A stretch of DNA of 64,000 bases from a virus (Duplodnaviria > Heunggongvirae > Uroviricota > Caudoviricetes): IMG/VR virus record IMGVR_UViG_637000107_000010. One strand, given 5' to 3'. Below the pieces are notes generated by a model. That model saw only the letters and a program-made list of their open reading frames with translations, made no database searches and had not been told where the DNA came from. Every line of letters begins with the position of its first letter. The first letter of the stretch is position 1. Shown piece after piece: positions 9,077 through 9,811 of the stretch. The translations under genes were made by a program, and so were the position numbers.

Positions 9077-9811
9077 ATGGAGACTGTTTTTGACGCACTG
9101 AAAGCGATGGGAAAAGCCACGTCGGTATAGCTGGCTGCGCGACTTGATATCAGTCGTGAAGAAGTACTGAACGAGCTGTGGGAACTGAAAAAGGCTGGCT
9201 TCGTTGATAAAAGCGTATACACCTGGCGTGTGGCTGATAACAACGTTCAGCAGGAACAGCCAGCGCCAGAAGAAACCACCACGGCAACAGAAGCGAAAAT
9301 CTCAGAGTGCGATTTAACCGCGACGATTGAACAACGCGGACCACAAACGGCGGATGAACTGGCTACGCTGTTCGGTACAACATCCCGCAAAGTTGCTTCA
9401 ACGCTGGCAATGGCAATCAGCAAAGGTCGTCTGATTCGCGTAAACCAGAACGGTAAAATTCGTTACTGCATACCAGGTGATAATTTACCAGCAGAGCCGA
9501 AAGTTGAATCGGTAGCGGAAACCGATGGTAAAGCCTTTCCTCAGCCAGCCGGTGTTGCGTTACCGGTACAGAAAGATGCAACACAGGAAGATATTAAAAC
9601 AGAAACTGTGGCGGACATTGTGCAGTCGCTGCCATCGTTTACTGCAACGCGAGAAGATGATTTGATTTTGCCATCGCTGCATATGGCAAATCGCGAACTG
9701 CGTAGGGCGAAGAATCATGTCCAGAAGTGGGAGCGAGTCTGCGCCGCGCTGCGGGAGCTGAACAAGCACCGGGATATGGTTGCCGGGATTTGTCGGAAGT
9801 CCGGGCAATGA
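9077..9811 (+). pseudogene. Conserved lambdoid prophage gene with an in-frame TAG stop at 9128-9130
   Basis: Single frame continuous from ATG 9077 to 9811 apart from one TAG; P2 paralog (36391..37126) has a sense codon there. Confidence 0.5.

Follow-up and report, generated by a model that had tools for sequence, protein, structure and literature searches.

Two inherited amber codons among apparent lesions in neighbouring prophages of Escherichia coli O157:H7

Two lambdoid prophages and their surroundings

The stretch of DNA analysed here, 64,000 nucleotides long and referred to below as the window, is Escherichia coli O157:H7 DNA that carries a lambdoid prophage at ompW (P1) together with a neighbour prophage (P2). 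The region around the finding is 99.9% identical to hundreds of finished E. coli O157:H7 chromosomes, and the finished genome of EDL933 (NZ_CP008957.1) was used as the reference. Positions 1-19019 of the window are colinear with the lambdoid prophage by ompW in finished EDL933, and positions 28147-44624 are colinear with the neighbouring prophage. The content of P1 comprises integrase, exonuclease, cI/cro, replication genes, DUF1627, paa, DUF968, rusA, tRNAs and a nanS-p-like esterase, and Pfam backs the gene identities used below (DUF1627, DUF968, DUF1737+SASA+DUF6645, TerB and RusA). A pair of tRNA genes lies downstream of the Q-like region in each prophage (16395-16627 and 43465-43717), with the anticodons CAT and TCT; the CAT tRNA is Met according to ARAGORN and Ile according to RefSeq. 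Isolated ambiguous bases (N) occur 93 times across the whole window.

The left end of P2 (29315-31092, minus strand) is marked by a real deletion, which is the same in finished EDL933. Of the integrase only 552 nt remain (29315-29866), and of RecE only an 802-nt N-terminal piece (30291-31092); a 414-aa open reading frame at 29848-31092 spans the deletion scar. Past 44624 the window departs from finished P2. The remaining part, 44624-64000, contains an N-rich nanS-p paralogue that is 95-96% identical to the P2 copy, IS1203 at 46868-48177, an inverted block of lysis genes at 53.6-56.3 kb that is 91-93% identical to P1 and P2, and ISEc8 at 57022-59461, followed by terminase and portal genes. When positions 43000-64000 were used as a 21-kb query, they were colinear with no finished genome.

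Amber codons in P1 DUF1627 and P2 rusA

Two in-frame TAG codons had been reported from the window, one in each prophage, and both are upheld by comparison with finished genomes. The features concerned are as follows.

9077..9811, plus strand: P1 DUF1627 gene, homologous to K-12 Rac ydaW; a true pseudogene, interrupted by an amber at codon 18
9128..9130, plus strand: the TAG, from GAG (Glu18) via G to T at 9128, the ancestral codon being taken from relatives
13808..14167, plus strand: P1 rusA, an intact 119-aa reference copy with CAG at codon 102, identical to finished EDL933
41243..41602, plus strand: P2 rusA, with CAG changed to TAG at codon 102 (41546-41548); a genuine change

The P1 DUF1627 reading frame, TAG included, is identical to that of finished EDL933 across 735 nt. 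The distribution of the stop was read directly from finished genomes by means of a TAG-centred 41-mer, in which a megablast seed is impossible without the TAG itself. This 41-mer is present in 293 of 5,426 finished genomes, and the serotype-labelled strains among the listed carriers are all O157 or O157:H7. The ancestral codon can also be read directly, in that five DUF1627 relatives have a sense codon at position 18, namely GAG in strains 2013C-3250, FORC_028, PEC399 and ST69 and GAA in K-12 Rac ydaW. The gene of strain 2013C-3250 is intact, encodes 244 aa and is 2 nt apart from the P1 copy. Because the stop is limited to O157:H7 and relatives have GAG, the TAG is best regarded as a recent point mutation and not as a conserved signal.

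The intact P1-type allele matches PF07789 at 7.5e-93 and 308.9 bits, and P2 DUF1627 matches it at 263.3 bits (gathering cut-off 28.1). Weak helix-turn-helix (HTH) matches are found in the N-terminal part of the intact P1-type protein, at residues 4-46, and we infer that the codon-18 stop cuts the protein within this region, making the P1 copy a pseudogene. From the sequence, a stop at codon 18 of 244 very likely means loss of function. The RefSeq CDS for the P1 gene (WP_077744273.1) starts at the CTG at 9131, directly after the TAG. Damage to DUF1627 is also found in other lysogens, FORC_028 having a 1-nt deletion and K-12 Rac having lost the 3' end, and this suggests that resident prophages can do without the gene.

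Just downstream of DUF1627, at 9977-10510, a "fimbrial protein" gene has a frameshift and an internal stop in both finished EDL933 and TR01. This is a real P1 lesion that was absent from the original prediction; the window has N at 10077 and 10123. In the finished genome P1 also has two tail defects, a shortened protein L and a J gene with a frameshift.

The rusA genes of the two prophages do differ as had been described, with a TAG in P2 opposite the CAG of P1. P2 rusA with its TAG is identical to finished EDL933, and the corresponding 41-mer is present in 260 of the 5,426 finished genomes, EDL933 among these. Beyond the TAG the ancestral frame stays open for another 17 codons, up to the original TGA at 41600-41602. 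P2 RusA thus keeps 101 of 119 residues, with the last 18 removed, and its match covers positions 1-109 of the Pfam RusA profile (length 124) as against 1-123 for the P1 protein. In RefSeq this shortened RusA of 101 aa appears as a normal protein (WP_001217444.1).

Both TAGs are found in independent finished assemblies and are therefore not sequence errors; they are old, and fixed or nearly so in the O157:H7 lineage. Their functional effects are predictions from the reading frames and profile matches. RefSeq hides both of these genuine lesions, and automated pseudogene counts of O157 prophages consequently miss DUF1627 and rusA.

Apparent frameshifts and the lysozyme junction

Four more genes had been described as frameshifted or as carrying a single-base insertion.

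12748..13795, plus strand: P1 DUF968 (YdfU-like) gene, extra T at 12821; judged a sequence error
17151..19007, plus strand: P1 nanS-p-like esterase gene (DUF1737+SASA+DUF6645), extra T at 17880, T at 17897 and C at 18793, and 15 N; insertions and N judged to be sequence errors in a collapsed repeat
36409..37126, plus strand: P2 DUF1627 gene, extra A in the run 36650-36653; judged a sequence error
43887..44319, plus strand: P2 TerB-family gene, extra G at 44050; judged a sequence error

The extra bases are indeed in the window, except that the nanS-p-like gene has three of them and not one, but finished EDL933 restores the reading frames of all four genes, and the caveat about sequencing errors that came with the original prediction is borne out. 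In the finished genome P2 DUF1627 has AAA and is an intact 717-nt gene (WP_000450627.1), P1 DUF968 is intact at 1,047 nt (WP_001302148.1), the P1 nanS-p-like gene at 1,854 nt (WP_000143067.1), and P2 TerB at 432 nt (WP_001302123.1). Since P2 DUF1627 is intact, the main claim, of independent hits to one conserved gene in P1 and P2, fails.

The TAG alleles, with their 293 and 260 genomes, provided positive controls for a search with the insertion k-mers. Among the 5,426 finished genomes there were 0 matches to the P2 DUF1627 41-mer with AAAA, 0 to the P1 DUF968 insertion 41-mer and 0 to the insertion k-mers of the nanS-p-like gene. The TerB insertion 41-mer was found in one of the 5,426, strain FRIK2533, in a different prophage. 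This match was considered as support for a real TerB allele and rejected, given the other prophage and the adjacent genes that are also marked as frameshifted.

An error signature emerges directly from a base-by-base comparison of the window with finished EDL933 over about 41 kb, which yielded 46 N, 17 single-base insertions (4 of them N), 0 deletions and about 7 non-N substitutions. Four of the seven substitutions, those at 18999-19012, coincide with the switch of the window to P2-type sequence. Each of the claimed frameshifts is one of the single-base insertions, and an insertions-only spectrum is not produced by mutation. The N are informative as well. An alignment of the P1, P2 and ssrA-prophage copies has 97 variable columns out of 2,823, and 15 of the 17 N in 17158-20272 lie on columns that differ among the three (Fisher p = 4.7e-21). 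Because the N are concentrated at such columns, the consensus of the repeat that runs from nanS-p to the lysis genes evidently mixes reads from several prophage copies.

The last of the listed lesions, truncation of the P1 endolysin by an insertion sequence, lies in a stretch of composite origin.

18999..19449, plus strand: intergenic segment of P2 type within "P1", where the stretch read as chimeric makes its first switch; from site-by-site comparison of three prophage copies
19450..22857, plus strand: holin, YdfR, lysozyme fragment (20059-20272), ISEc8 fragment (20272-21547) and IS1203 (21544-22857); ssrA-adjacent remnant, not P1

The lysozyme fragment abuts the ISEc8 fragment at 20272, and this junction is a real sequence, with 283 finished genomes matching it at 100% identity. 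Its origin could be determined directly, for in the two genomes where it was located, TR01 and EDL933, it lies in the degraded prophage remnant beside ssrA; the truncated gene is thus the remnant's, and the lysozyme of finished P1 is intact. The ssrA-adjacent remnant of finished EDL933 matches positions 19450-22634 of the window with 99.78% identity, and that of TR01 matches the full block 19450-22857 with 99.7%. The gene order in the remnant is DUF6645 esterase, holin, YdfR, lysozyme fragment, ISEc8 fragment, IS1203 and tail-fibre fragment. In finished P1 the lysozyme gene is 534 nt long, and the terminase, head and tail genes beyond it, about 22.7 kb in all, are missing from the window.

Typing of the copies site by site assigns the window to the P1 type up to about 18975, to the P2 type at 18999-19449 (where finished P1 has 144 bp versus 431 bp), and to the ssrA-prophage type from about 19900, and the window rejoins the right end of P1 at 22857. 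This mosaic make-up was exposed by local BLAST to EDL933 loci. A 24.5-kb query with the layout of the window had seemed to be 95% covered in finished genomes, and that result was set aside as a joining of pieces from different places. We read the stretch from the P2-type spacer to the right end of P1 as a chimeric assembly via repeats.

The right end of P1 itself (22857-28146) contains a tail-fibre C-terminus, DUF1076, nleG7 and an IS256-family transposase gene split by ISEc8. Compared with finished EDL933 it has nine more single-base insertions (two of them N), one of which, at 25011, is near the 3' end of nleG7.

Inheritance, artefact and the known prophages of O157

The listed lesions are, with high probability, accounted for by two inherited TAGs, base-calling insertions and a chimeric join taken together. 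The nonsense mutations, GAG to TAG in P1 DUF1627 and CAG to TAG in P2 rusA, are vertically inherited within O157:H7. The single-base insertions would be base-calling errors, made where a sequence of draft quality passes through highly repetitive prophage DNA, and would create the false frameshifts of P2 DUF1627, P1 DUF968, the P1 nanS-p-like gene and P2 TerB. The assembly would have been joined through near-identical lysis cassettes and tail-fibre ends, along a path that leads from P1 to the P2-type spacer, on to the lysozyme::ISEc8::IS1203 of the ssrA remnant and back to the right end of P1, skipping about 22.7 kb of late genes. Rather than coming from an unusual isolate, the window is most likely an earlier assembly of this clone, namely the EDL933 sequence of 2001; other O157:H7 strains, e.g. 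M1300706002, are about equally similar in these prophages.

Alternatively, every listed lesion could be real in the source isolate, reflecting active decay and an IS-mediated deletion of the P1 late region. The lesions are, after all, literally in the window, O157 prophages are widely defective (PMC2669165), IS-mediated deletions are common in O157, and the TerB k-mer does occur in FRIK2533, though in another prophage and amid other frameshifts. The spectrum of 17 insertions with 0 deletions and hardly any substitutions is nevertheless not a mutational one, and the N positions coincide with differences between prophage copies. Three of the four frameshifted genes are unmatched in 5,426 finished genomes, the TerB exception being the single match just mentioned. 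The supposed deletion would need three switches between three prophages about 1.7 Mb apart, and the layout at 43-64 kb is found in no finished genome. We regard this alternative as very unlikely.

The two TAGs could also be sites of functional recoding, either by suppressor readthrough or by re-initiation that gives a working, N-terminally shortened DUF1627. A fully open downstream frame in both DUF1627 and rusA, the RefSeq entries for normal proteins (WP_077744273.1 and WP_001217444.1) and the fixation of the alleles in 260-293 genomes would all fit such a scheme. However, the tRNAs in the window have the anticodons CAT and TCT only and include no CTA suppressor, and an open downstream frame is expected anyway in a young lineage. 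The DUF1627 stop is moreover confined to the O157:H7 lineage, with 99.7% identical relatives keeping GAG, and the TAG lies within the N-terminal HTH region, half of which would be missing from a product that starts after it. Recoding therefore seems extremely unlikely. A related possibility is that both ambers, instead of being neutral decay, were selected as "domestication", with loss of a DNA-binding DUF1627 protein encoded beside the replication genes and trimming of the RusA resolvase, or that a shortened, re-initiated DUF1627 is made; to this we attach almost no credence. Decay downstream of the stops is uninformative about selection because the O157:H7 lineage is too young.

The preferred reading, of inherited stops plus artefact, leaves two ordinary, already-fixed nonsense mutations together with sequence and assembly artefacts, and nothing new. 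Independent decay of the two prophages survives to the extent that each has lesions of its own, namely the two TAGs and the defects that had not been listed, but the listed frameshifts and the IS truncation contribute nothing to it. The useful outputs are a quality warning for the window and a remark on RefSeq annotation. Frameshifts and IS junctions in the repeated prophage modules of this window cannot be read as biology, since its ambiguous and inserted bases are the marks of a consensus that is collapsed and chimeric.

The independent decay of O157 prophages is real and has already been documented. According to Asadulghani et al. (2009, PMC2669165), every lambdoid prophage of O157:H7 has a set of inactivating defects of its own, which affect integration, recombination, morphogenesis and regulation. 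The ambers in DUF1627 and rusA, the shortened integrase and RecE of P2 and the tail defects of P1 fit this pool of defective prophages, although that study concerns strain Sakai. The words "nonsense", "amber" and "frameshift" are absent from its main text, and the two amber point mutations are therefore probably not described there.

The quality of the window has a parallel in the 2001 EDL933 assembly, where 2,413 ambiguous bases other than N stood in a genome that has phage repeats of >7 kb (PMC4132626); finished EDL933 is 18.9 kb longer than that assembly (Latif et al. 2014, PMC4132626). The window likewise has scattered ambiguous bases, with a concentration in prophage repeats, and its region is shorter than in the finished genome, though the published report gives totals only and not these sites.

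The closest parallel for the DUF1627 lesion is ydaW of the K-12 Rac prophage, which belongs to the same DUF1627 family, occupies the same place after the replication genes and has also been inactivated in a cryptic prophage. The manner of inactivation differs, in that K-12 ydaW has lost its 3' end and has GAA at codon 18, whereas the O157:H7 P1 copy is full length and carries a single amber.
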